Below are positions 41,675 through 53,713 of a DNA stretch of 64,000 nucleotides, one piece after another. The DNA is taken from NCBI GenBank assembly GCA_041611735.1, contig JBFIML010000010.1, positions 1-64,000 on the forward strand, given 5' to 3'. A model generated the notes under the pieces. That model did no database searches, was not told the DNA's origin, and worked only from the letters and a program-made list of their open reading frames with translations. Each line of letters opens with the position of its first letter. Positions within the stretch are counted from its first letter, which is position 1. The DNA is from Myxococcota bacterium. Its GTDB lineage: Bacteria; Myxococcota_A; UBA9160; PR03. The translations under genes and the position numbers were made by a program.

Positions 41675-41795
41675 CGCCAGGGGGCTCCCCTGTACCCTCG
41701 GCGTGCTCGTCCCGTGGGGGTGGGGGACGTGAAATTCCTTGGCCAGGCATTCCTTTGCGAGGCAGGGCCGTCGAGGGCGTCCGAGAGCGTCCGGC

Positions 41796-44213
41796 ATGGC
41801 TAGCCGCGCCGCACGCCGCGGCCGGGGGGCGGCGGCGTCGGAACGACGCTCCGCCCTGCTCCGTTGGCTCCGCGAGGCCGTCGGCCTCGCCCTGATCGCC
41901 CTGGCGCTGCTCGCCGGCCTGGCCCTCTGGAGCTACGCGCCGGGCGATGCGCTCTTCGAGCTCGTGCCGGTCCGCAACCGGGCCGGCGCCGTGGGGGCCA
42001 CCCTGGCCGGGGTCCTGCGCCAGGGCCTGGGTGTCGTCTCGCTGGTGCTGGCGGGCGTGGCCGCCGTGCTCGGGGGTCGTGTCCTGCTGTCGCGGTGCGC
42101 ACCGAGCCCGCGTTTCTGGCTGGGCGGTGCACTCCTGGTGGCCTGCGCGGCGACGCTCCTGGCTGTGGGTCACGTCCTGGCCCCGGCCCGCTTCGAGTCC
42201 GATCTCGGCGGGGCGCTCGGGGTCCGGCTGGCGGCCTGGCAGCGCCCCTGGCTGAGCAGCTGGGGCACGCTCGTCGTCAACGGCCTGGGTGCGGGCGTGG
42301 GGCTGCTCGCCGTGCTCGGCGTCTCGAGCCCGACTGCCTTGCGCGCCGCGGCGGCGGGAGCGGCCGGGCTCGCGGTCCTGGCCCGGCGCGCCCTCGCCGT
42401 CGGCTTCGTGGTCCTGGCGGCCGCGGCCCTGGCGGCGACCGGCCTGGCCCGGGCCCTGGGCCGGCTCGCCGCCGCCGGCGCCAGCGCCCTCGGCGAACGC
42501 TGGCGCGCCTTCGGAGTCTGGCGCGAGCGGCGGGCGCGGCGCGCGCGCGTGGCGGCGATCCGCGTCCCCGACGAGGCGCTGGAGCAGCCGGTGGAGGCGG
42601 TCCTGGAGCCGGCCCGCCCGCGCCCGCGCCGCCGCGACCGCGACGACCCTGCCATCGTGGACCACGCCGCCGAGCGCGAGCCGGGCCGCCCGGCCCGCCA
42701 GGAGGCCTTCGCCTTTCCGGACGGCCGGGCGCGGGGCCCCTACCGCCTGCCCGACGTCGCCATCTTCCAACGCTCGCCGGGCGGCGAGCGCCGCTACGAC
42801 CGCGACAGCCTGATCATGAACTCGCGGATCCTGGAGAAGAAGCTCCAGGACTTCGGCGTGCACGGCCGTGTGGTCACCGTCCACCCGGGACCGGTCATCA
42901 CCATGTACGAGTTCGAGCCGGCCTCCGGGGTCAAGGTGAACCGCATCGTGAACCTGGCGGACGACCTGGCGCTGGCGCTGCGGGCGCTCTCGGTGCGCAT
43001 CATCGCGCCGCTGCCGGGCAAGTCGGTGGTGGGAATCGAGGTCCCCAATGCGGAGCGCGAGGTGGTGGTGCTGCGCGACCTGCTGGAAGCGGAGTCGTTC
43101 CGGTCGAGCCGTTCCAAGCTCACCCTCGCGCTCGGCAAGGACATCTTCGGCAACCCGGTGGAGGCGGACCTGGCCCGCATGCCGCACCTGCTGGTGGCCG
43201 GGGCCACCGGGACCGGCAAGAGCGTGTTCCTGAACGCACTGCTCTGCTCGATCCTCGCCCGGGTCACGCCCGACCAGCTCAAGCTCCTCCTGATCGACCC
43301 CAAGCTCCTCGAGCTCTCGATCTACGAAGGGATCCCGCACCTGATCGCCGACGTGGTGACGAACCCGAAGCGGGCGGCGGCGGCGCTTGCGGGCATCGTC
43401 CACAAGATGGAGGAGCGCTACCAGATGATGGCGGCGCTCGGAGTCCGCAACATCGAGCAGTTCAACGCGCGCGTGGACGAGCAGCTCGCCGACGGTCGAA
43501 CGACGTTCCGCCTGCGACCCCGGCCCGGCGAGACCGAGGCGCGCGAGGCGCCGCTCACGCCCCTTGCCTACATCGTGGTGATCATCGACGAGCTGGCGGA
43601 CCTCATGGTGGTCTCCGCCCGCGACGTGGAGGAGGCGCTCCAGCGTCTCGCGCAGATGGCCCGCGCGGCGGGCATCCACCTGGTGCTGGCCACCCAGCGG
43701 CCGAGCGTGGACGTGCTGACCGGCGTGATCAAGGCGAACTTCCCGGCACGGATTTCCTTCCAGGTCTCGTCGCGCACCGACTCGCGCACGATCCTCGACC
43801 AGAATGGCGCCGAGCACCTGCTCGGCCAGGGGGACATGCTGTTCCTCCCGCCCGGGACCTCGAAGCTCCAGCGCATCCACGGGGCCTTCGTGTCCGAGAA
43901 GGAGGTGACCGAGCTCGTGGCCTTCCTGCGCGACCAGGGAGCGCCGCAGTTCGACGACACGCTCGTGCGCATGAAGGAGGAGAGCGAGGCGCGCGAGGCG
44001 CGGGGCGAGGACGTGGACGACCTCTACGATCGGGCCGTGGCGCTGGTGGCGGAGAGCCGCAACGCCTCGATCTCCCACGTCCAGCGCCGACTCAAGGTGG
44101 GCTACAACCGGGCTGCCCGGATGATCGAGCAGATGGAGGCGGACGGCATCGTGGGTCCCCAGGAGGGGACCCGCCCGCGGGACGTGTTCATCCGCCCCCT
44201 CGACGTCGAATGA
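41796..44213 (+). CDS. ftsK: DNA translocase FtsK
   Basis: N-terminal TM block, PGPVIT.YE, HLLVAGATGTGKS, IIDELADLM, ATQRPSVDV, gamma domain GYNRAAR. Confidence 0.96.
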   Translation: MASRAARRGRGAAASERRSALLRWLREAVGLALIALALLAGLALWSYAPGDALFELVPVRNRAGAVGATLAGVLRQGLGVVSLVLAGVAAVLGGRVLLSRCAPSPRFWLGGALLVACAATLLAVGHVLAPARFESDLGGALGVRLAAWQRPWLSSWGTLVVNGLGAGVGLLAVLGVSSPTALRAAAAGAAGLAVLARRALAVGFVVLAAAALAATGLARALGRLAAAGASALGERWRAFGVWRERRARRARVAAIRVPDEALEQPVEAVLEPARPRPRRRDRDDPAIVDHAAEREPGRPARQEAFAFPDGRARGPYRLPDVAIFQRSPGGERRYDRDSLIMNSRILEKKLQDFGVHGRVVTVHPGPVITMYEFEPASGVKVNRIVNLADDLALALRALSVRIIAPLPGKSVVGIEVPNAEREVVVLRDLLEAESFRSSRSKLTLALGKDIFGNPVEADLARMPHLLVAGATGTGKSVFLNALLCSILARVTPDQLKLLLIDPKLLELSIYEGIPHLIADVVTNPKRAAAALAGIVHKMEERYQMMAALGVRNIEQFNARVDEQLADGRTTFRLRPRPGETEAREAPLTPLAYIVVIIDELADLMVVSARDVEEALQRLAQMARAAGIHLVLATQRPSVDVLTGVIKANFPARISFQVSSRTDSRTILDQNGAEHLLGQGDMLFLPPGTSKLQRIHGAFVSEKEVTELVAFLRDQGAPQFDDTLVRMKEESEAREARGEDVDDLYDRAVALVAESRNASISHVQRRLKVGYNRAARMIEQMEADGIVGPQEGTRPRDVFIRPLDVE

Positions 44214-44938
44214 TCCCGTCCCGGGCGCGTCGAAGGGCCGTGCGCTCGATCCTGCCCCCGTGCCTGGCGATCGCCCTGCTCCTCGTGGCCGCCCCGACGC
44301 CGGCCAACGACTCCGACTCGTCGCCGTCCGGCTCCGGCTGCGCGGAAGCCGCCGCACGCCGGGTCCAGAGCCGTTACGAGGAGATCCGCGACCTCTCCGC
44401 CCGCTTCGAGCAGCGCACCCGCCCGGCTGCCTTCGGAGGCCAGGGCGCGCCCTTCGTGGCCCGGGGGCGCGTCACCCTCGCCAAGCCGGGCCGCATGCGG
44501 TGGGCCTACGAGGCGCCGGAGCCGAGCCTGGTGGTGAGCGACGGCAAGACGGTCTGGGTGTACGACCCCGCCGCCCGCGAGGCCCAGCACCTGCCCCTGG
44601 GCGAGCGTTTCCTCTCGGGCGCCGCGATCCAATTCCTGATCGGCCGCGGCAACCTGCTCGAGGAGTTCTCGGTGAGTTCGCCGGCCTGCGGCGAGTCCCC
44701 GCTGCGCCTCGTGCTGGTGCCGAAGCGGGATGCGCCCTACGAGCGGCTCGAGGTGCGCGTGGAGCCCCGCACCGGCGTGGTGGTCGAGACCGCCGTGGCG
44801 GACCTGCTCGGCAACGTGACCCACGTGGTCTTCGAGGACATGCGCACGAACCAGGACCCCGAGCCGGCCCTGTTCCGCTTCGAGCCGGAGCCGGGCGTCA
44901 AGGTGATCGAGCTGCCGCCGGCACCCGCCAGGCCCTAG
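44210..44938 (+). CDS. lolA: Outer membrane lipoprotein chaperone LolA
   Basis: Signal peptide; SARFEQ, KPGRMRW.Y and VSDGKTVWVYDP motifs; ATGA-coupled to ftsK. Confidence 0.9.
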   Translation: MIPSRARRRAVRSILPPCLAIALLLVAAPTPANDSDSSPSGSGCAEAAARRVQSRYEEIRDLSARFEQRTRPAAFGGQGAPFVARGRVTLAKPGRMRWAYEAPEPSLVVSDGKTVWVYDPAAREAQHLPLGERFLSGAAIQFLIGRGNLLEEFSVSSPACGESPLRLVLVPKRDAPYERLEVRVEPRTGVVVETAVADLLGNVTHVVFEDMRTNQDPEPALFRFEPEPGVKVIELPPAPARP

Positions 44939-45250
44939 GACCCCCCGAACGGAACCATGCAGCCGCGGGCCCTCCCGGGCCGGCGCGTCTCCGCATTCGG
45001 GAAGTCGACTTCCCTCCCGGGGCGGTCTCGCAAGGTTCCGCGCACGCCTCCCGCCTGCCGGTGGATCCCCGACGCTTTCGTCAAGAGGCTGGCTCCTGGC
45101 CCCCAGGCGTTGCCTCACGAGGCGGCAGCCAGGCGGCCCAGATGCGCGTCCCGGCGAAGCCAGCCGGCAGGCGCGCTGGCGGGGGGAGGGCGCCGCACCC
45201 CGCCGCCCCGCTCGCCGGGCGCCTCCGGGCGGCTGGGCCGGCCGTCTCGC

Positions 45251-45278
45251 TTGACAGCAAGACGCGTTCTGATAGACT
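45251..45278 (+). promoter_or_regulatory. sigma70-like promoter upstream of the proteasome operon
   Basis: TTGACA-N16-TAGACT with an extended -10 TGn. Confidence 0.55.
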
Positions 45279-45521
45279 CCACGAGGCTAAAAACGATTGC
45301 AATATCGAGGGTTTCGGCGGTTTCTTCGGCGCGGGTGAGAGCGGCCGGTGGGCCTCGGGAGGCGACCGGCCGGCGGCAGCTTCGGTCTTCGAAGCTCCGG
45401 TGGGGACGGTGATGCGGTCCGGCTCGGGCGTTCCCAACACTCGCGCGCAACGCGCGCGCAACTGCGGCGCGCAGCGGCTCGCCACCGGTTCGCTATCCGG
45501 CGATGATGCCTTTCCGGTGCA

Positions 45522-45537
45522 CGGCACGTGGATTGCA
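45522..45537 (+). promoter_or_regulatory. sigma54 (-24/-12) promoter candidate for arc
   Basis: CGGCAC-GTGGA-TTGCA with exact GG-N10-GC spacing, 62 nt before ATG 45600. Confidence 0.65.
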
Positions 45538-45599
45538 TCGATTCGTCCCCGAGTGGCGCCACGAGCGGGCGTGGCGCCGGAGCACGGGGAGAGGGCGCG

Positions 45600-47423
45600 A
45601 TGAGCGAATTCGATTCGGGCTCGGGCAGGAAGGGCTTCGTTCGGGACGTGATGCGGCGCATCTCGGCCTCGGGGCCCCGCTCAGGCGGAGAGCCGGACCC
45701 CGGGCGTGGCCCGGAGGAGACCCTGGAGGATCTCCTGGACGCGCTGCGGCTGTTCGGCGGGGATTCCAGCGAGTTCCGTCGTCGCTTGGACCGCGTGCTC
45801 GGCGAGTACGAGTCGCTGCGCCGCCGCTACCAGCTCTCCCGCGATCAGCTCGTCGATGCGGAGCGGCAGAACGAGCGGCTGGTCCACACCCTCCAGGAGG
45901 CCAAGCAGCAGATCGAGCTCCTGAAGGAGGAGGTGGAGAAGCTCTGCGCGCCTCCCAACAGCTACGGCGTCTTCACGCGCGCCAACAAGGACGGCACCGT
46001 GGAGATCGTCGTGGACGGCAAGCCCATGCGGGTGAGCGCCCATCCGAAGGTCGATCCCTTCCAGATCGAGGAAGGTCAGCTCGTCGTGCTGAACGAGGCG
46101 TTCAACGTGATCGAGCCGGCCGGCATCGTGACCCGGGGAGAGATCGCGTCGGTGGTCGACCTCCTCGGCGACGGGCGGGCCATCGTGCTCGGCCACGCCG
46201 ACGAGGAGCGCGTCGTCACCCTGGCGTCCATCCTGCGCCAGGAGAAGCTCAAGGTCGGTGACCACATCATGATCGATCCGCGCACCCAGTACGCCTTCGA
46301 GAGGATGCCCAAGTCGGCGGTCGAGGAGGTCGTGCTCGAGGAGATCCCGGAGATCACCTACGATCGCATCGGCGGCCTGGACGAGCAGATCGAGATCCTT
46401 CGCGACGCGATCGAGCTGCCCTACCTGTATCCCGAGGCGTTCGCGGAGCACCGTCTCTCGCCGCCCAAGGGCATCCTGCTGTACGGCCCCCCGGGCTGCG
46501 GCAAGACGCTCATCGCCAAGGCGGTGGCGAACAGCCTGGCGCGGAGCATCGAGCAGCGCACGGGTCGGCGCACCGCTGCGTACTTCCTCAACGTGAAGGG
46601 GCCGGAGCTGCTCAACAAGTACGTGGGCGAGACCGAGCACAAGATCCGCGAGGTGTTCAAGAAGGCGCGCGAGAAGGCCAGCGAGGACGTGCCCGTCGTC
46701 ATCTTCTTCGACGAAATGGATTCGCTCTTCCGCATGCGCGGATCGGGCATCTCCTCGGACATGGAGGCCACGGTGGTGGCTCAGTTCCTGTCGGAGATCG
46801 ACGGGGTGGAGTCGCTGAACAACGTGATCGTGATCGGCGCCAGCAACCGGCAGGACCTGATCGACCCGGCGGTACTGCGCCCCGGACGCCTCGATCTCAA
46901 GGTCAAGGTGCACCGGCCCGACTCCCCGGCGGCGCGCGCCATCTTCGGGAAGTACCTGCTCACCGATCTTCCCTTCCACCCGAACGCGCAGGAGCGCTAC
47001 GGGAGCGATCCGCAGAAGATGGTGGACGGGATGATCGACGACACGATCGAGCACATGTACTCGACGTCGGAAGACAACAAGTTCCTGGAGGTGACGTACG
47101 CCAAGGGCGAGCGCGAGATCTTCTACTTCAAGGACTTCGCGAGCGGCGCGATGATCGAGAACATCGTGGCGCGCGCCAAGAAGAAGGCCGTGAAGCGCCT
47201 GATCGACCACGGGGAACGCGGCGTCAAGCTCTCCGATCTCCTCGAGGCCGTGCGCGAGGAGTTCAAGGAGAACGAGGACCTTCCGAACACCACGAATCCG
47301 GACGACTGGGCGCGCATCTCCGGCCGCAAGGGCGAGCGGATCATCAACGTCCGGACGTTGATGACGGGGATCAATCGGAACGAGCGCTCGATCGAGAACA
47401 TCAGCTCGGGTCAGTACCTGTAG
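45600..47423 (+). CDS. arc: Proteasome-associated AAA ATPase ARC/Mpa
   Basis: N-terminal coiled coil ending PP.SYG, OB domains, GPPGCGKT, KGPELLNKYVGETE, FFDEMD, PNTTNPDDWARISG; C-terminal GQYL docking motif. Confidence 0.97.
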   Translation: MSEFDSGSGRKGFVRDVMRRISASGPRSGGEPDPGRGPEETLEDLLDALRLFGGDSSEFRRRLDRVLGEYESLRRRYQLSRDQLVDAERQNERLVHTLQEAKQQIELLKEEVEKLCAPPNSYGVFTRANKDGTVEIVVDGKPMRVSAHPKVDPFQIEEGQLVVLNEAFNVIEPAGIVTRGEIASVVDLLGDGRAIVLGHADEERVVTLASILRQEKLKVGDHIMIDPRTQYAFERMPKSAVEEVVLEEIPEITYDRIGGLDEQIEILRDAIELPYLYPEAFAEHRLSPPKGILLYGPPGCGKTLIAKAVANSLARSIEQRTGRRTAAYFLNVKGPELLNKYVGETEHKIREVFKKAREKASEDVPVVIFFDEMDSLFRMRGSGISSDMEATVVAQFLSEIDGVESLNNVIVIGASNRQDLIDPAVLRPGRLDLKVKVHRPDSPAARAIFGKYLLTDLPFHPNAQERYGSDPQKMVDGMIDDTIEHMYSTSEDNKFLEVTYAKGEREIFYFKDFASGAMIENIVARAKKKAVKRLIDHGERGVKLSDLLEAVREEFKENEDLPNTTNPDDWARISGRKGERIINVRTLMTGINRNERSIENISSGQYL

Positions 47424-47453: not shown

Positions 47454-48938
47454 ATGGCGATCCCCAAGGTGATGGGAACGGAGATCGAATACGGGATCAC
47501 CGTCAAGAACGACCGCGATTTCGACCCCATCTCGAGCTGTGTGCTGCTGGTCAACTCCTACCGGGAGGAGACGGCCGGGCAGATCCTGTGGGACTACGAC
47601 CAGGAGAATCCGCTGGCGGACGCCCGCGGCTTCCAGGTGGAGGGGGAGAAGTACACCCCCAACCAGCAGGAGAACATCGCGCGCAACAAGACGCTCGTGA
47701 ATGGGGCGCGCTACTACGTCGACCACGCCCATCCCGAGTACTCCTGCCCCGAGGTCACCAACCCCCGCGATCTGGTCGTGCACGAGAAGGCCGGCGAGCG
47801 CATCGTGGAGCTCTCGCGGCGCGAGGCCAGCCGGGTGCTCCCGCCGGGCAGTCAGATGCTCATCTACAAGAACAACAGCGATCGCAAGGGAAACAGCTAC
47901 GGCTGCCACGAGAACTACTTGATGGACCGCCGCACGTCCTTCAAGCAGATCGTGGAGCATCTGATGCCATTCCTGGTGACCCGGCAGTTGTACACGGGAG
48001 CCGGAAAGGTGGGCAGCGAGAACCGGGCGCAGCCCTGCGAGTACCAGCTCTCGCAGCGTGCGGACTTCTTCGAGACCGAGGTGGCGCTCGACACCATGGT
48101 GAAGCGCCCCATCATCAATACGCGTGACGAACCCCACGCGGACCGCGAGAAGTACCGCCGGCTGCACGTGATCGTGGGCGACTCGAACATGAGTGAGTTC
48201 ACGATCTACCTGCGCAACGGCGCCACCGCGATCGTGCTTTCCATGATCGAGGACGGCGCGATCACCCGGGACCTCTCCCTCCACGACCCCGTGCGCGCGA
48301 TCAAGGAGGTCTCCCACGACGTCGCCTGCCGACGCCCCCTCGAACTCGCCAACGGAAAGCGTATGACCGCCGTGCAGATCCAGGCCGAGTACCTGGCCAT
48401 GGCGCACCGCTACGTGGCCGGGCGCCCCCAGGAACCCTGGGTCTCCGAGGTCCTGCAGAAGTGGGAGCGGGTGCTCGACGCCCTGGCCCGGGATCCCATG
48501 GAGCTCGCCGGCGAGATCGACTGGGTGATCAAGCACGCGATGATCCGGGGCTTCATGGAGCGCAAGGGGCTCGACTGGGGCTCCTCCCAGGTCCAGATGC
48601 TCGACCTCCAGTACCACGACCTGCGTCCCGACAAGGGGCTGTACTATCTTCTGGAACGCCAGGGGAAGGTCGAGCGCATCGTCGAGGACGACCAGATCCG
48701 CCGCGCCATCCACGAGCCGCCCGAGGACACGCGGGCGTATTTCCGGGGCTCCTGCCTCAAGCGCTTCGGATCGGAGGTCTTCGGTGTGAACTGGGACTCG
48801 ATCTCGTTCGGCATCGGAGACGAGCCGATCAAGCGCGTCCTCATGGTCGAGCCCCTCAAGGGCTCGAAGACGCACGTGGAGGAGCTCCTGGCCCGGTCGC
48901 CGACCGCGGCGGATCTCGTCCGGAACCTGAGGGCCTGA
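47454..48938 (+). CDS. dop: Pup deamidase/depupylase Dop
   Basis: MGTEIEYGI, WDY, NGARYYVDHAHPEYS, SQRADFFE, INTRDEPHAD and PPEDTRAYFRG motifs. Confidence 0.95.
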   Translation: MAIPKVMGTEIEYGITVKNDRDFDPISSCVLLVNSYREETAGQILWDYDQENPLADARGFQVEGEKYTPNQQENIARNKTLVNGARYYVDHAHPEYSCPEVTNPRDLVVHEKAGERIVELSRREASRVLPPGSQMLIYKNNSDRKGNSYGCHENYLMDRRTSFKQIVEHLMPFLVTRQLYTGAGKVGSENRAQPCEYQLSQRADFFETEVALDTMVKRPIINTRDEPHADREKYRRLHVIVGDSNMSEFTIYLRNGATAIVLSMIEDGAITRDLSLHDPVRAIKEVSHDVACRRPLELANGKRMTAVQIQAEYLAMAHRYVAGRPQEPWVSEVLQKWERVLDALARDPMELAGEIDWVIKHAMIRGFMERKGLDWGSSQVQMLDLQYHDLRPDKGLYYLLERQGKVERIVEDDQIRRAIHEPPEDTRAYFRGSCLKRFGSEVFGVNWDSISFGIGDEPIKRVLMVEPLKGSKTHVEELLARSPTAADLVRNLRA

Positions 48939-48960: not shown

Positions 48961-49221
48961 ATGCAACGCCACACCAACCCCCCTGCTCGCCCTACCGCGG
49001 GATGGCTTCCGATCTTCGCGGCTGCCGACTCCCAGCAGAAGCAGAAGCCGAGACGCGGCGGTGGCGAGGGCGAGGCCGAGAGCGAGGGCGGCCAGAAGCT
49101 CGCCAAGAAGGGCGAGGAACTCAAGGAAGAGATGGACGCACTGATCGACGAGATCGACGAGGTCCTCGAGGAGAACGCCGAGGAGTTCGTCAAGAACTAC
49201 GTCCAGCGCGGCGGCCAGTAG
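48961..49221 (+). CDS. pup: Prokaryotic ubiquitin-like protein Pup (Gln-terminated)
   Basis: DALIDEIDEVLEENAEEFVKNYVQRGGQ*; located between dop and prcB. Confidence 0.95.
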   Translation: MQRHTNPPARPTAGWLPIFAAADSQQKQKPRRGGGEGEAESEGGQKLAKKGEELKEEMDALIDEIDEVLEENAEEFVKNYVQRGGQ

Positions 49222-49252: not shown

Positions 49253-50038
49253 GTGCTCTTCCAGGGCAAGTACGGTGGGTCCAGCTTTCGCGAGCTGATC
49301 GAAACCGACTTCCCGCAGCTCCTTCCGGCGCTGCGGGGGGAGCCGGGTCGAGCGCTCCCGAGCGTCCCGCACGGCACCACCGTGCTCGCGCTCAAGTACG
49401 GTGACGGAGTGCTGGTCGGCGGCGACCGACTCGCCACCGAGGGCTACCGCGTCGCCTCCCGAGACATCCAGAAGGTCTACGCCACGGACGCGCATTCCCT
49501 CATCGCGATTTCGGGGGCGGCGGGACCCAGCATCGAGATGGCCCGTCTGCTGCGCATCGAGCTCGAGCACTACGAGAAGATCGAGGGGGAGGCCCTCGAG
49601 CTCGAGGGCAAGGCCAACAAGCTCTCCCAGATGGTGCGTGCCAACCTGCCCGCCGCCATGCAGGGTCTCGTGGTCGTTCCCATCTTCGCCGGCTACGACC
49701 TGCGCCGGAGCACCGGCCGGCTGTGGAAGTACGACGTGACCGGAGGCCGCTACGAGGAGGCGGAGTACGATGCCTCCGGGAGTGGTGGACTGTTCGCACG
49801 CGACTCGCTCAAGAAGAGCTGGCGGCCGGGCCTTTCGCGGGAAGAGGCGTTGCGAAACGGCATCCAGGCCCTCGTAGATGCGGCCGACGAGGATCGGGCC
49901 ACCGGGGGGGTGGACCTGCTGCGGGGCATCTTCCCCACCGTGAACCTCTGCACCGAGCAGGGCATCGAGGACGTATCCGAAGACGAACTGCGGCGGGTCT
50001 ACGAGCAGGCCATGGCTCCGCGGCGCGCTGCGGAGTAG
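49253..50038 (+). CDS. prcB: 20S proteasome beta subunit
   Basis: SSF-containing propeptide of about 41 aa, HG|TTV cleavage site, GDR.AT, ELEHYEKIEG, SGSGG and D.ATGG. Confidence 0.96.
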   Translation: MLFQGKYGGSSFRELIETDFPQLLPALRGEPGRALPSVPHGTTVLALKYGDGVLVGGDRLATEGYRVASRDIQKVYATDAHSLIAISGAAGPSIEMARLLRIELEHYEKIEGEALELEGKANKLSQMVRANLPAAMQGLVVVPIFAGYDLRRSTGRLWKYDVTGGRYEEAEYDASGSGGLFARDSLKKSWRPGLSREEALRNGIQALVDAADEDRATGGVDLLRGIFPTVNLCTEQGIEDVSEDELRRVYEQAMAPRRAAE

Positions 50039-50044
50039 CCGCCC

Positions 50045-50743
50045 ATGTCGATGCCGTTCTACGTCTCTCCCGAGCAGTGGATGCAGGACAAGGCGGAGTA
50101 CGCCCGCAAGGGCATCGCCCGCGGCCGGTCGCTCATCGCCCTGGAGTACCAGGCCGGCATCCTGCTGATCGCCGAGAACCCGTCGAGCTTGTCGAAGATC
50201 GGTGAGATCTACGATCGCATCGCCTTCGCGGGCGTGGGCAAGTTCAGCGAATTCGACCAGCTGCGCAAGATCGGCGTGCGCTACTGCGACGTGAAGGGCT
50301 ACGCCTACAGCCGGGAGGACGTGCGCGCCAAGGCGCTGGCCAACGCCTACTCCCAGGCGATCGGTGACGTCTTCACGCGCGAGCTCAAGCCGCTCGAGGT
50401 CGAGGTGATCGTGGCGGAGGTGGGCAACGACGAGCTGGTGGGTCAGGAACGCAACGCGATCTTCCGCGTGCAGTTCGACGGCAGCATCTCGGACCATGAG
50501 GGCCATTGCGTGATCGGGGGCAGCGTGGAGAACCTCCAGGGCCACCTCCAGGGCCACTACCGCGCTGATCTACCCCTCGGGGAAGCCGTGCGCCTGGGGC
50601 GCGACGCGCTGGCTCAGGCAGGCGGAGGTCACGCGGGGCTCGCCCCCGAGAACCTCGAGGTGTGCGTGCTCGATCGCTCGCGTCCCGGCCGAAAGTTCCG
50701 GCGCCTTCCCGCCGAAGAAGTACGAGGTATGCTAGGCGGCTGA
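50045..50743 (+). CDS. prcA: 20S proteasome alpha subunit
   Basis: PFYVSPEQ.M.DKAEYARKGIARGRS, KI.EIYDRIAFA, YSREDV and KPLEVE motifs. Confidence 0.96.
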   Translation: MSMPFYVSPEQWMQDKAEYARKGIARGRSLIALEYQAGILLIAENPSSLSKIGEIYDRIAFAGVGKFSEFDQLRKIGVRYCDVKGYAYSREDVRAKALANAYSQAIGDVFTRELKPLEVEVIVAEVGNDELVGQERNAIFRVQFDGSISDHEGHCVIGGSVENLQGHLQGHYRADLPLGEAVRLGRDALAQAGGGHAGLAPENLEVCVLDRSRPGRKFRRLPAEEVRGMLGG

Positions 50744-50773: not shown

Positions 50774-52183
50774 GTGGTGCAAAAACGAATCTACGGTCTG
50801 GAGACCGAATACGGGATCATCTTCACGCCCGAGGGCCGCAAGACGCTGCCCGTCGAGAAGGCGATCCGTTTCCTTTTCGAGAAGCTGATCACCACCGAGC
50901 ACTTCCTCAACGTCTTCCTCGAGAACGGCGCGCGCTTCTACCAGGACACGGGCTGCCACCCGGAGTACGCCACGCCGGAATGCGCCTCGCCTCGCCAGCT
51001 GCTCGTGTACGACAAGGCCGGCGAGCGCATCCTGGAGGAGCTCCAGGACTACGCCGAGGAGAAGATCCGCGAGGAGCGCATCGCGGGCAAGCTCTCGATC
51101 TTCAAGAACAACACCGACTTCGTGGGCAACAGCTACGGCTGCCACGAGAACTACCTGGTCGACCGGGATGTAGACTTCTACTACCTGGCCGAGCAGCTGA
51201 TTCCGTTCCTGGTGACCCGCCAGATCTACACGGGTGCCGGCAAGGTCTTCCAGACCCAGGACGGCGTGCACTACTGCATCAGCCAGCGCGCCCAGCACAT
51301 CTACCAGAAGATCTCTGGCACCACGACGAACGATCGCTCCATCATCAACACGCGCGACGAGCCGCACGCGGACCGCGAGAAGTACCGGCGCCTCCACGTG
51401 ATCGTGGGCGACTCGAACATGAGCGAATACACGAACTTCATCAAGATCGGGACGTGCGCCGTCGTGCTGCAGATGATCGAGGACAACTTCATCAACAAGG
51501 ACTTCACCCTGCGCAATCCGGTGAAGGCGATCAAGGACATCTCGTACGACACCACCTGCAAGCGTCGACTGCGCCTGGACAACGGCCGGGAGTATTCGCC
51601 GATCGAGATCCAGCGCGAGTACTGCGAGATGGCCCAGCGCTACCTGGAGCAGTATCCGGTCAGCGACGAGCTACGCGATTCGGTCGTCGAATGGCAGTAC
51701 GTGCTCGACTGCCTGGACACGGATCCCAACCGACTGTCGAGACAGATCGATTGGGTGATCAAGCGGCAGATGATCGAATCGTACCTGGGGAGCCGGGGCA
51801 CGACCTGGAACGATCCTCGCGTCTTCATGCTCGATCTCCAGTTTCACGACATCCGCGTGAGCCGCGGGCTCTTCTATCTGCTGGAGCGCAAGGAGGCGGC
51901 GGACCGGCTGCTGAACGACGACGAGGTCATGAAGGCCAAGACCGAGCCGCCGCCCGACACGCGGGCCAAGATGCGGGGCGAGTTCATCAAGCTCGCGCGC
52001 CAGAACGCGATCCAGTACGACCTGGACTGGTCGAACATCCGCCTCGGCAACCTGCTCAACGTGCGCGTGATCTGCAACAACCCCTTCGAGACCGATACGG
52101 AGAAGGTCGCGGAGCTGGTGCGGACGATCCAGAAGACGAACCTGCGCAAGACGAGCCTCTCGAAGCTGGTGATCCAGTCGTGA
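50774..52183 (+). CDS. pafA: Pup--protein ligase PafA
   Basis: RIYGLETEYG, NVFLENGARFY.D.G.HPEYATPEC, KNNTD..GNSYGCHENY, SQRA.HI and TRAKMRG.F motifs. Confidence 0.95.
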   Translation: MVQKRIYGLETEYGIIFTPEGRKTLPVEKAIRFLFEKLITTEHFLNVFLENGARFYQDTGCHPEYATPECASPRQLLVYDKAGERILEELQDYAEEKIREERIAGKLSIFKNNTDFVGNSYGCHENYLVDRDVDFYYLAEQLIPFLVTRQIYTGAGKVFQTQDGVHYCISQRAQHIYQKISGTTTNDRSIINTRDEPHADREKYRRLHVIVGDSNMSEYTNFIKIGTCAVVLQMIEDNFINKDFTLRNPVKAIKDISYDTTCKRRLRLDNGREYSPIEIQREYCEMAQRYLEQYPVSDELRDSVVEWQYVLDCLDTDPNRLSRQIDWVIKRQMIESYLGSRGTTWNDPRVFMLDLQFHDIRVSRGLFYLLERKEAADRLLNDDEVMKAKTEPPPDTRAKMRGEFIKLARQNAIQYDLDWSNIRLGNLLNVRVICNNPFETDTEKVAELVRTIQKTNLRKTSLSKLVIQS

Positions 52184-52678: not shown

Positions 52679-53713
52679 ATGTTCAGCTCGCTCGCGGGCC
52701 TCTTCTCCAACGACCTCGCCATCGACCTCGGCACCGCGAATACGCTGGTGTACGCCCGGGGCAAGGGGGTCGTCTGCTCGGAGCCGAGCGTCGTGGCGGT
52801 CGCCAAGGACCCGAACGGCCGCGGGGAGCGGGTCCTGGCGGTCGGCAACGAGGCGAAGGCCATGCTCGGGCGCACGCCCCACGGCATCCGCGCCATCCGC
52901 CCCATCAAGGACGGGGTCATCGCCGATTTCGAAGTCACCGAGGCGATGCTCCGCTACTTCATCCACCGGGCCCACAACCGCTCCAAGCTCGTACGCCCGC
53001 GCATCGTGATCTGCGTGCCGCCCTGCATCACGAGCGTGGAGAAGCGTGCGGTGCGCGAGTCGGCGCTCTCGGCCGGGGCGCGCGAGGTCTTCCTGATCGA
53101 AGAGCCCATGGCGGCCGCCATCGGGGCCGGACTCGACGTGACTGCCCCCAGCGGGAACATGGTCTGCGACATCGGCGGTGGCACCACCGACGTGGCCGTC
53201 ACCTCCCTGGCCGGCATCGTGGCCTCGCGCTCCGTCCGCTGCGGCGGCGACAAGATGGACGAGGCGATCATCCAGTACGTGAAGCGGAAGTACAACGTCC
53301 TGATCGGTGAGCGCACCGCCGAGGACGTCAAGATGACGATCGCCACGGCCTCGCCGCACGGCAAGACCCAGACCATGGAGATCAAGGGGCGCGATCTGGT
53401 GGCCGGCATTCCGAAGGTGGTGGTGGCCACCAGCGAGGAGATCTACGAGGCGCTGATCGAGCCGATCAGCACGATCGTAGAGACCGTGCATCTCACCCTC
53501 GAGCGGACGCCGCCCGAGCTCGCCGCGGACATCGTGGATCGCGGCATCATGCTGGTGGGCGGGGGCTCCCTGCTGCGGGACCTGGACCGGGTGCTACGCG
53601 AGGAGACCAAGCTCCCCATCCTGCGCAGCGACGATCCGTTCACGGCGGTGGTCCACGGGGCCGGCCGGGCCCTGGAGGACCTGGCCCTGCTGCGCCAGGT
53701 GGCCCTGGTCTGA
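52679..53713 (+). CDS. mreB: Rod shape-determining actin homolog MreB (no adjacent mreC/mreD)
   Basis: DLAIDLGTANT, RPIKDGVIADF, EEPMAAAIGAG, DIGGGTT and TPPELAADI motifs. Confidence 0.95.
   Translation: MFSSLAGLFSNDLAIDLGTANTLVYARGKGVVCSEPSVVAVAKDPNGRGERVLAVGNEAKAMLGRTPHGIRAIRPIKDGVIADFEVTEAMLRYFIHRAHNRSKLVRPRIVICVPPCITSVEKRAVRESALSAGAREVFLIEEPMAAAIGAGLDVTAPSGNMVCDIGGGTTDVAVTSLAGIVASRSVRCGGDKMDEAIIQYVKRKYNVLIGERTAEDVKMTIATASPHGKTQTMEIKGRDLVAGIPKVVVATSEEIYEALIEPISTIVETVHLTLERTPPELAADIVDRGIMLVGGGSLLRDLDRVLREETKLPILRSDDPFTAVVHGAGRALEDLALLRQVALV

Follow-up and report, generated by a model that had tools for sequence, protein, structure and literature searches.

The stretch of DNA considered here, referred to throughout as the window (64 kb, positions 1 to 64,000 of contig JBFIML010000010.1 in the Myxococcota assembly GCA_041611735.1), contains a Pup-proteasome operon in which six co-directional genes (arc-dop-pup-prcB-prcA-pafA, separated by gaps of 6-31 nucleotides (nt)) lie 3' of a 660-bp spacer at 44939-45599. 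This spacer is bounded by the lolA stop at 44938 and the arc ATG at 45600. The full Pup-proteasome gene set is present (Arc/Mpa, Dop, Pup with a C-terminal GGQ, the 20S beta and alpha subunits, and PafA), and five of the proteins (the ATPase, Dop, Pup, 20S beta and 20S alpha) pass the corresponding NCBIfam equivalog cut-offs. The subject of this report is the spacer itself, which holds two promoter motifs, termed here P1 (sigma70-type) and P2 (sigma54-type), together with an upstream conserved element (UCE). Comparison of its sequence with those of related genomes makes it likely, in our judgement, that the spacer is the control region of the operon, with tandem sigma70 and sigma54 promoters directed toward arc and an activator encoded at an unlinked site.

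The extent of the spacer depends on the placement of the arc start codon. A Shine-Dalgarno-like run (GGGGAGAGGG; 45586..45602 on the + strand, including the start codon at 45600) precedes the gene, and both this GAGGAGA-like sequence and the ATGAGCGAGTTCGA opening are kept across the loci compared below, in most of which tblastn matches to Arc begin at residue 1. The conserved ribosome-binding site and opening support the start at 45600, and therefore the limits that an earlier reading of the same DNA, made from its sequence only, had assigned to the spacer. The four motifs which that sequence-only reading had placed within these limits (a palindrome, the two promoter motifs and a set of short repeats) all lie where it located them.

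A search with the Arc protein, restricted to one genome per species, returned at least 504 relatives, the best 80 of which (68-92% identity, all of them metagenome-assembled genomes) were used for comparison. Their titles name Myxococcota, Myxococcales, Myxococcaceae or Deltaproteobacteria in 66 cases, ‘uncultured Spirochaetales’ in nine, Proteobacteria in two, Desulfobacterales in one and other bacteria in the remaining two. Four loci (L047, L052, L059 and L072) start within arc and provide no upstream DNA, leaving 76 usable loci, or 77 spacers when the window is included. Of the 76, 75 share the order ftsK-lolA-spacer-arc (no lolA match was found in L067), with a lolA-to-arc gap of 196-1048 nt. 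The order dop-pup-prcB-prcA-pafA is found in 49 of the 80 loci, 34 of which then continue into mreB; the loci outside these 49 are cut by contig or flank ends, or contain paralogous dop and pafA matches that are ambiguous. Throughout the clade (L001-L080; 41733-53713 in the window) the operon is thus set in a conserved housekeeping neighbourhood, with ftsK-lolA on its 5' side and mreB on its 3' side, which speaks for long residence of the operon rather than recent insertion. The closest relative, L043 (92% Arc identity), aligns to the spacer of the window only around P1 and P2.

P2 (CGGCACGTGGATTGCA, or CGGCAC-N5-TTGCA; 45522..45537, + strand) is a sigma54-type motif located 77 nt before arc. 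Its GG (45523-45524) corresponds to a -24 element and its GC (45535-45536) to a -12 element, with a gap of exactly 10 nt, and its letters (CGGCACG-TGGA-TTGCA) show one mismatch (C for T) to TGGCACG-N4-TTGCW, the sigma54 consensus given as TGGCACG-N4-TTGC(T/A) in the accessible part of PMC7910581. Judged by the statistics of the window alone the motif is not significant: GGCAC-N5-TTGC is matched once on the two strands of the 64 kb, against 0.54 matches expected, and at least once in 41 of 100 shuffles. Because motif statistics within the window leave the question undecided, it is the comparison with relatives that decides.

That comparison, which the sequence-only reading had put forward as a test of its proposal, gave a clear answer. 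A GG-N10-GC motif in a sigma54 context (GGCAYR-N4-TTGCA-like) is found in 75 of the 76 loci, on the + strand and 55-160 nt before arc. Within 400 nt 5' of arc, GGCAC-N5-TTGC occurs exactly in 45 of the 76 and with one mismatch, nearly always GGCAT, in 28. The distance from the start of the motif to the ATG is 61-125 nt in most loci and 159-160 nt in two. The rest of the same 80 loci (1.88 Mb, both strands), used as a control, contains two exact matches and 158 that differ at one position, a density of 0.021 per 250 nt. Three of the most distant relatives (L078, L079 and L080) carry GGTAYG-N4-TTGCA, two of them with the canonical T before GG. In the family consensus, gCGGCAyr-N4-TTGCA, the GG follows a C in 62 of 74 sites and TTGC is followed by an A in 71, while the five spacer bases are variable and the surrounding positions (18 nt upstream and 40 nt downstream) hold 0.0-0.6 bit each; the alignment was anchored on the motif and is partly circular for the pattern letters, with the positions outside them still informative. 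Conserved letters between variable flanks are the footprint expected of a sigma54 site. When scored with a position weight matrix built from the P2 sites, the site in the window reaches 19.9 bits and the next best in the 64 kb 10.7 bits.

No second conserved sigma54 site was found near the locus, where matches above 9 bits to the same matrix (12 in the flanks) are scattered. Three relatives (L034, L035 and L048) share a sigma54-like motif of 9-10.5 bits at about 4920-4955 nt after the arc start and about 220 nt before pafA, a position equivalent to about 50550 of the window, inside prcA, where the window itself has no match above 8 bits; this motif is probably a coincidence of the coding sequence. 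In the window, transcription from P2 is predicted to start near 45548, which would give a leader of about 50 nt. A hairpin (GGCGCCACG-agcggg-CGTGGCGCC; 45555..45578, + strand) can be drawn in this predicted 5' untranslated region (minimum free energy -22.3 kcal/mol, z = -2.0), and relatives tend toward a hairpin at the same place in the leader, with a sequence that differs between loci. Measured against dinucleotide shuffles in 71 loci, the mean z of the leader is -0.80, with 30 loci below -1 and 25 above 0, so that folding of the P2 leader is a tendency, and a modest signal among related loci.

P1 (TTGACA-N16-TG-n-TAGACT; 45251..45278, + strand) combines a -35 hexamer at 45251-45256 with a -10 hexamer at 45273-45278, and would direct transcription from a predicted start near 45285. 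It matches the consensus at 10 of 12 positions, has in addition a TG one base before the -10 hexamer, and is the only promoter-like match in 44500-46000 (shuffles, 0.0). The proposal of a distal sigma70-type promoter is borne out, as a conserved motif, by the relatives: a strict pattern (TTGACA allowing up to one mismatch, a gap of 15-19 nt, TAnAnT) is found in 34 of the 77 spacers, and a profile trained on those 34 recovers P1, along with about 60 nt downstream of it, in 69 of the 77, always on the + strand and 230-700 nt before arc. Among 68 mapped copies the -35 element is exactly TTGACA in 58, the -10 element is TAnnnT in 63 and a TG precedes it in 32; the hexamers are separated by 16 nt in 51 copies, by 17 nt in 12 and by 15 nt in five. 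In the 67 loci that contain both promoters P1 lies upstream, its -10 element 173-561 nt (median 297) from the GG of P2. Neither a gene nor a known RNA nor a terminator-like site was found between the two motifs and arc.

Directly after the -10 element of P1 lies a block of about 45 nt (GAAAA ... cgaAAtTtCGAgaGGTTCGgcg (GAAAA ... TCGAGAGGTTCGGCG); 45279..45325, + strand) that is conserved in sequence, with a TT that is invariant in the alignment (68 of 68). RNAalifold finds no consensus structure in it (0 pairs). A hairpin drawn by hand from one member was rejected: 56% of it is paired, a value equalled or bettered by 485 of 500 shuffles. Conservation as sequence and not as structure suggests that a protein binds here, at about +1 to +45 of P1, and the block is a candidate operator or architectural-protein site. 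The spacing of its most conserved C and TT, with an A-tract upstream, resembles that of the IHF consensus, a likeness that serves as a lead only.

The third conserved feature of the spacer, which the sequence-only reading had not recorded, is the UCE, an element of about 110 nt between lolA and P1 (45029..45137, + strand) that was recovered by iterated nhmmer searches. It is detected in 64 of the 77 spacers, always on the + strand and as a single copy in the window and the loci, with the consensus ...cCGACgc...cGTCAAaA..cCGGCaactc....GCAgc.TcGCAtC.cgagGcGGCA.c..g...GCa. Its distances, as medians, are 65 nt from the lolA stop, 146 nt (48-198) to P1 and 484 nt (250-580) to P2. Its contents include a GAC-N6-GTCAAAA dyad and GCA triplets about 11 nt apart, together with two motifs (CGGCAACTC-N4-GCA and GCGGCA(C/G)-N8-GCA) that reproduce the GG-N10-GC spacing without the TT of TTGC. 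On the P2 matrix these two motifs have a median score of 0.3 bit, against 23.7 bits for P2; in 49 of 61 loci they score higher than the 99.9th percentile of the background, and in 48 their offset is the same. The stretch between lolA and P1, in which 406 of 2211 pairs of loci are similar, is far more conserved than the part between the promoters, where 30 of 2701 pairs have any blastn similarity and the sequence is essentially free to vary.

RNAalifold returned no consensus structure for the UCE on either strand, and helices drawn by hand within it showed no covariation and were no better than shuffles; nor was a conserved reading frame or peptide found in it. Within the element lies a weak Rfam match to chrB-a (45080-45144), whose 15.3 bits fall short of the threshold of 43.9. 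The UCE is a candidate DNA-level platform for a regulator, or a candidate distant enhancer. P2 is present and the UCE undetected in 12 loci, from which it follows that the UCE is not indispensable, or that it has diverged there.

The arrangement of these features suggests how the control region might operate. A sigma54 promoter requires a dedicated activator, and at P2 the sigma54 holoenzyme would remain in a closed state on the GG (-24) and GC (-12) elements until an ATP-hydrolysing bacterial enhancer-binding protein (bEBP), encoded elsewhere in the genome, opened the promoter; the resulting transcript would begin at about 45548, with a hairpin-prone leader of about 50 nt. P1, near-consensus and about 270 nt upstream of P2, would provide activator-independent transcription that reaches arc by way of a leader of about 315 nt. 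The unstructured 45-nt block after its -10 element would most simply be a binding site for a protein that gates P1, and the UCE (45029-45137) is the best candidate for the platform of a further regulator or for a distant enhancer. The conservation of P2 suggests that the operon is switched on by a signal-dependent activator of a kind not known for the Pup-proteasome.

A tandem arrangement of this type has a counterpart in the glnAp1/glnAp2 promoters of Escherichia coli, where a sigma70 promoter lies upstream and a sigma54 promoter downstream, about 115 nt apart, and where NtrC sites lie over the first of the two. The two systems share a sigma70-then-sigma54 order on one strand ahead of a single operon, and in the present case a conserved candidate binding block overlaps the start region of the upstream promoter; the analogy is one of architecture, and the promoters described here are farther apart (173-561 nt).

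Compared with the sigma54 promoters of Myxococcus xanthus and other bacteria that are described in the available text of PMC7910581, P2 shows the same fixed 10-nt gap between GG and GC and the same GGCAC(G) and TTGCA letters, at 61-125 nt before the start codon and in a host phylum rich in bEBPs (of which Nla28 is an example). It differs in mostly having C before GG and in having no recognisable tandem activator site 80-150 bp upstream, and the Pup-proteasome operon is not among the controlled genes reported in that part of the paper.

Several points weigh against the proposed tandem sigma70-sigma54 control. The 80 loci are mutually related, so that the counts given above make the independent observations seem more numerous than they are. 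GG is mostly preceded by C rather than by the T of the consensus (62 of the 74 sites). Neither rpoN nor a gene for a bEBP (Sigma54_activat domain, GAFTGA motif) was found in the 64-kb window, where 47 open reading frames were compared with Pfam, or within 6 kb of arc in the 80 loci; the single GAFTGA match returned for these sequences was a false, off-frame one. That this genome encodes both is deduced from the Myxococcota labels of the relatives and from a 2025 survey (PMC12316311), which, in the portion available, reports high bEBP counts in Myxococcota and describes Actinomycetota as practically without RpoN. No enhancer motif shared among the loci was found 20-230 nt upstream of P2, a range that includes the usual place of such sites, and Nla28-like half-sites are only weakly enriched between the promoters (present in 8 of 74 loci; shuffles give 2.4 and at most 7). 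One relative, L070 (4093-4289), has no P2 motif: its spacer is 196 nt long and contains TTGACA-N17-TACCCT about 100 nt before arc. With P2 lost, a sigma70-like promoter is all that this locus retains, and P2 is therefore dispensable there.

Two other explanations of the conserved promoter motifs deserve to be weighed against the tandem reading. P1 might be separate from the operon, driving a short transcript that contains the 45-nt block, either a small RNA or a leader that ends early, with the proteasome genes transcribed from P2 alone. Conservation downstream of P1 is indeed confined to about 45 nt, a T-rich run follows the block in many loci, the roughly 250 nt past it are unconserved, and promoters this close to consensus tend to serve highly expressed RNAs more than they do stress proteases. 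However, no terminator-like site was found in 44500-46000, the block has neither a consensus structure nor a match in Rfam, and in the P2-less L070 the sigma70-like motif close to arc is the only candidate promoter; we regard a separate P1 transcript as doubtful. Alternatively, GG-N10-GC might be conserved for a reason that has nothing to do with sigma54, as the operator of an ordinary transcription factor or as an RNA-level signal within the P1 leader, an idea that draws on the taxonomy-based case for rpoN and bEBPs, on the failure to find a canonical enhancer upstream of P2 and on the conserved C before GG. It seems very improbable, since the GGCAYR and TTGCA letters and the fixed 10-nt gap that recur in 75 of 76 loci are those of the sigma54 consensus and the bases between them vary, since GG and TTGCA persist in the most distant relatives and the T before GG is restored there, and since the motif occupies one strand in a fixed orientation and at a fixed distance to the start codon.

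The remaining alternative concerns the location of the P2 enhancer, which the sequence-only reading had sought in a pair of repeats and a dyad (45442..45474, + strand). These consist of two copies of CGCGCGCAAC (at 45442 and 45453, an 11-nt period) followed by CTGCG-gcg-CGCAG (45462-45474). A decamer repeated at 11 nt is unusual (one case in the window against 0.17 in shuffles); the centre of the repeats is some 80 nt upstream of the predicted P2 start, within the usual enhancer distance of 80-150 bp upstream given in the accessible part of PMC7910581; the dyad resembles the Nla28 half-site CT(C/G)CG(C/G)AG, to which there is a one-mismatch match at 45462; and 27 nt that take in the dyad are 89% identical in L001, at an identical offset from P2. 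Yet the exact decamer occurs in only three of the 76 other spacers, as does CTGCG-N3-CGCAG, so that they do not form a general enhancer. The closest relative, L043, does not align to the window at this place, and GC-rich dyads are no commoner than shuffling produces (129 against 111, at most 151). A role for the repeats as the enhancer of P2 is accordingly unlikely, somewhat more so than a separate transcript from P1; they are lineage-specific, and may at most provide a local activator site. The regions between the promoters offer no obvious replacement, since no 6-8-mer occurs in more than 29 of 74 loci there (the most significant, TTGCGT/ACGCAA, occurs in 18 of 74) and the best shared dyad in 7 of 74. 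Of the earlier proposal that pupylation is under sigma54/bEBP control, the conserved tandem promoter motifs are thus in favour, while the part that assigned the enhancer to these repeats did not hold.

A more ambitious extension of tandem control by P1 and P2 may be suggested tentatively, although we consider it doubtful as a whole. The spacer could be a three-part switch by which a horizontally acquired Pup-proteasome operon was rewired into the myxobacterial sigma54 network, with a single NtrC-type activator binding the P1 block, and perhaps also the UCE with its phased GCA triplets and its two sigma54-like half-promoters, so as to shut P1 and fire P2 about 270 nt away. If such a switch exists, the signal that sets proteasome and pupylation capacity would be one of starvation or development. 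In Actinobacteria, DNA-damage and redox cues are known for the proteasome and pupylation.

The operon itself closely resembles the actinobacterial Pup-proteasome locus, with the same six genes in the same order, a Pup ending in GGQ and a Dop, but the host here is a diderm with LolA. Because Actinomycetota are effectively without RpoN (according to the portion of PMC12316311 available), sigma54 control of the operon cannot be ancestral actinobacterial wiring. The same portion of that survey predicts another proteasome-family protease, Anbu (COG3484, ‘proteasome-type protease’), in sigma54 regulons of alpha-, beta- and gamma-Proteobacteria, and Anbu is up under nitrogen limitation in Pseudomonas putida (PMC5666114 in the text available, citing Hervas 2008). 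Predicted sigma54 control is the point of likeness; Anbu is a simpler protease without Pup, Dop, PafA or Arc, and the prediction concerns Pseudomonadota, not Myxococcota. Pupylation genes have also been described outside Actinobacteria in the deltaproteobacterial and myxobacterial lineage, in Plesiocystis pacifica, whose Pup ligase has membrane helices and is unlinked to proteasome genes (PMC2588565, as far as its text was accessible); the present genome differs in having a complete proteasome operon.

In the literature searched, which left most subscription journals outside its coverage, no description of sigma54 control of a Pup-proteasome operon was found, and no proteasome COG numbers occur in the 11 supplementary table files of PMC12316311. 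The two promoter types and the operon are each known, and it is the wiring between them, and its strict conservation together with two further noncoding modules, that appears to be undescribed. Such wiring would matter in several respects. A sigma54 promoter kept across about 75 genomes predicts one specific, signal-sensing activator that turns the system on, and the question of what a proteasome does in diderm bacteria becomes a search for one regulator and its signal. The locus would also provide a clean example of an acquired operon that has been given host-specific control, with three conserved noncoding modules. To our knowledge, the timing of proteasome production and pupylation in bacteria is poorly understood, and work on it has been confined to Actinobacteria, in which sigma54 is absent.

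Other features of the spacer did not survive comparison. The perfect 16-bp palindrome that the sequence-only reading had remarked upon (GGGAAGTCGACTTCCC, 44999..45014) is present, but as a regulatory site or terminator it was rejected: the window contains nine perfect 16-bp palindromes against a mean of 4.1 in 30 shuffles, a chance-level occurrence, and GGGAAGTCGACTTCCC with up to three mismatches is found in just five of 76 other 1.1-kb upstream stretches. It is neither rarer than chance nor conserved, and probably has no function of its own. A small conserved protein encoded in the spacer was likewise rejected, as six-frame peptides match only near-identical loci, or match in several frames and on both strands, and no conserved peptide was found between P1 and P2. 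So was a structured cis-regulatory or small RNA: at the gathering score Rfam gave nothing in the window or in 10 loci, a permissive scan gave chance-level matches only, and neither the P1 block nor the UCE yielded a consensus structure.

The remaining genes of the neighbourhood are as follows. The window has a G+C content of 70.8%, and a scan of it found no tRNA (transfer RNA) or tmRNA (transfer-messenger RNA) genes. A gene with FtsK domains (ftsK, 41733-44213) precedes lolA (44230..44938, + strand, start approximate), which encodes an outer-membrane lipoprotein carrier (Pfam LolA, E 2.9e-22); the presence of LolA indicates a diderm host, and hence one that is not an actinobacterium. Downstream of the spacer, all on the + strand, arc/mpa (45600..47423) encodes the proteasome AAA ATPase (TIGR03689 pup_AAA, 723 bits against a cut-off of 505; Pfam AAA and two OB domains), and is followed by dop (47454..48938), for the depupylase/deamidase (TIGR03688, 581 bits against a cut-off of 492), pup (48961..49221; Pfam Pup and TIGR03687, with a translated C-terminus of ...RGGQ), prcB (49253-50038; 20S beta, TIGR03690, 293 bits) and prcA (50045-50743; 20S alpha, TIGR03691, 290 bits), the last two above their cut-offs. 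The last gene of the operon encodes a PafA-like Pup ligase (50774..52183; Pfam Pup_ligase, E 2.7e-150), and is followed by mreB (52679-53713). In Pfam, the six products fall into the proteasomal ATPase, Pup-ligase, Pup and proteasome families. This second Pup-ligase paralogue scores 542.2 with TIGR03686, against a cut-off of 551.3, and 409 with the Dop model, and by these scores its product is clearly more PafA-like than Dop-like. The start codon of pup is uncertain: its longest open reading frame encodes 86 amino acids, with an N-terminal extension that lies outside the models (the Pfam match begins at residue 25 and the NCBIfam match at residue 56), and the true start is probably further downstream.

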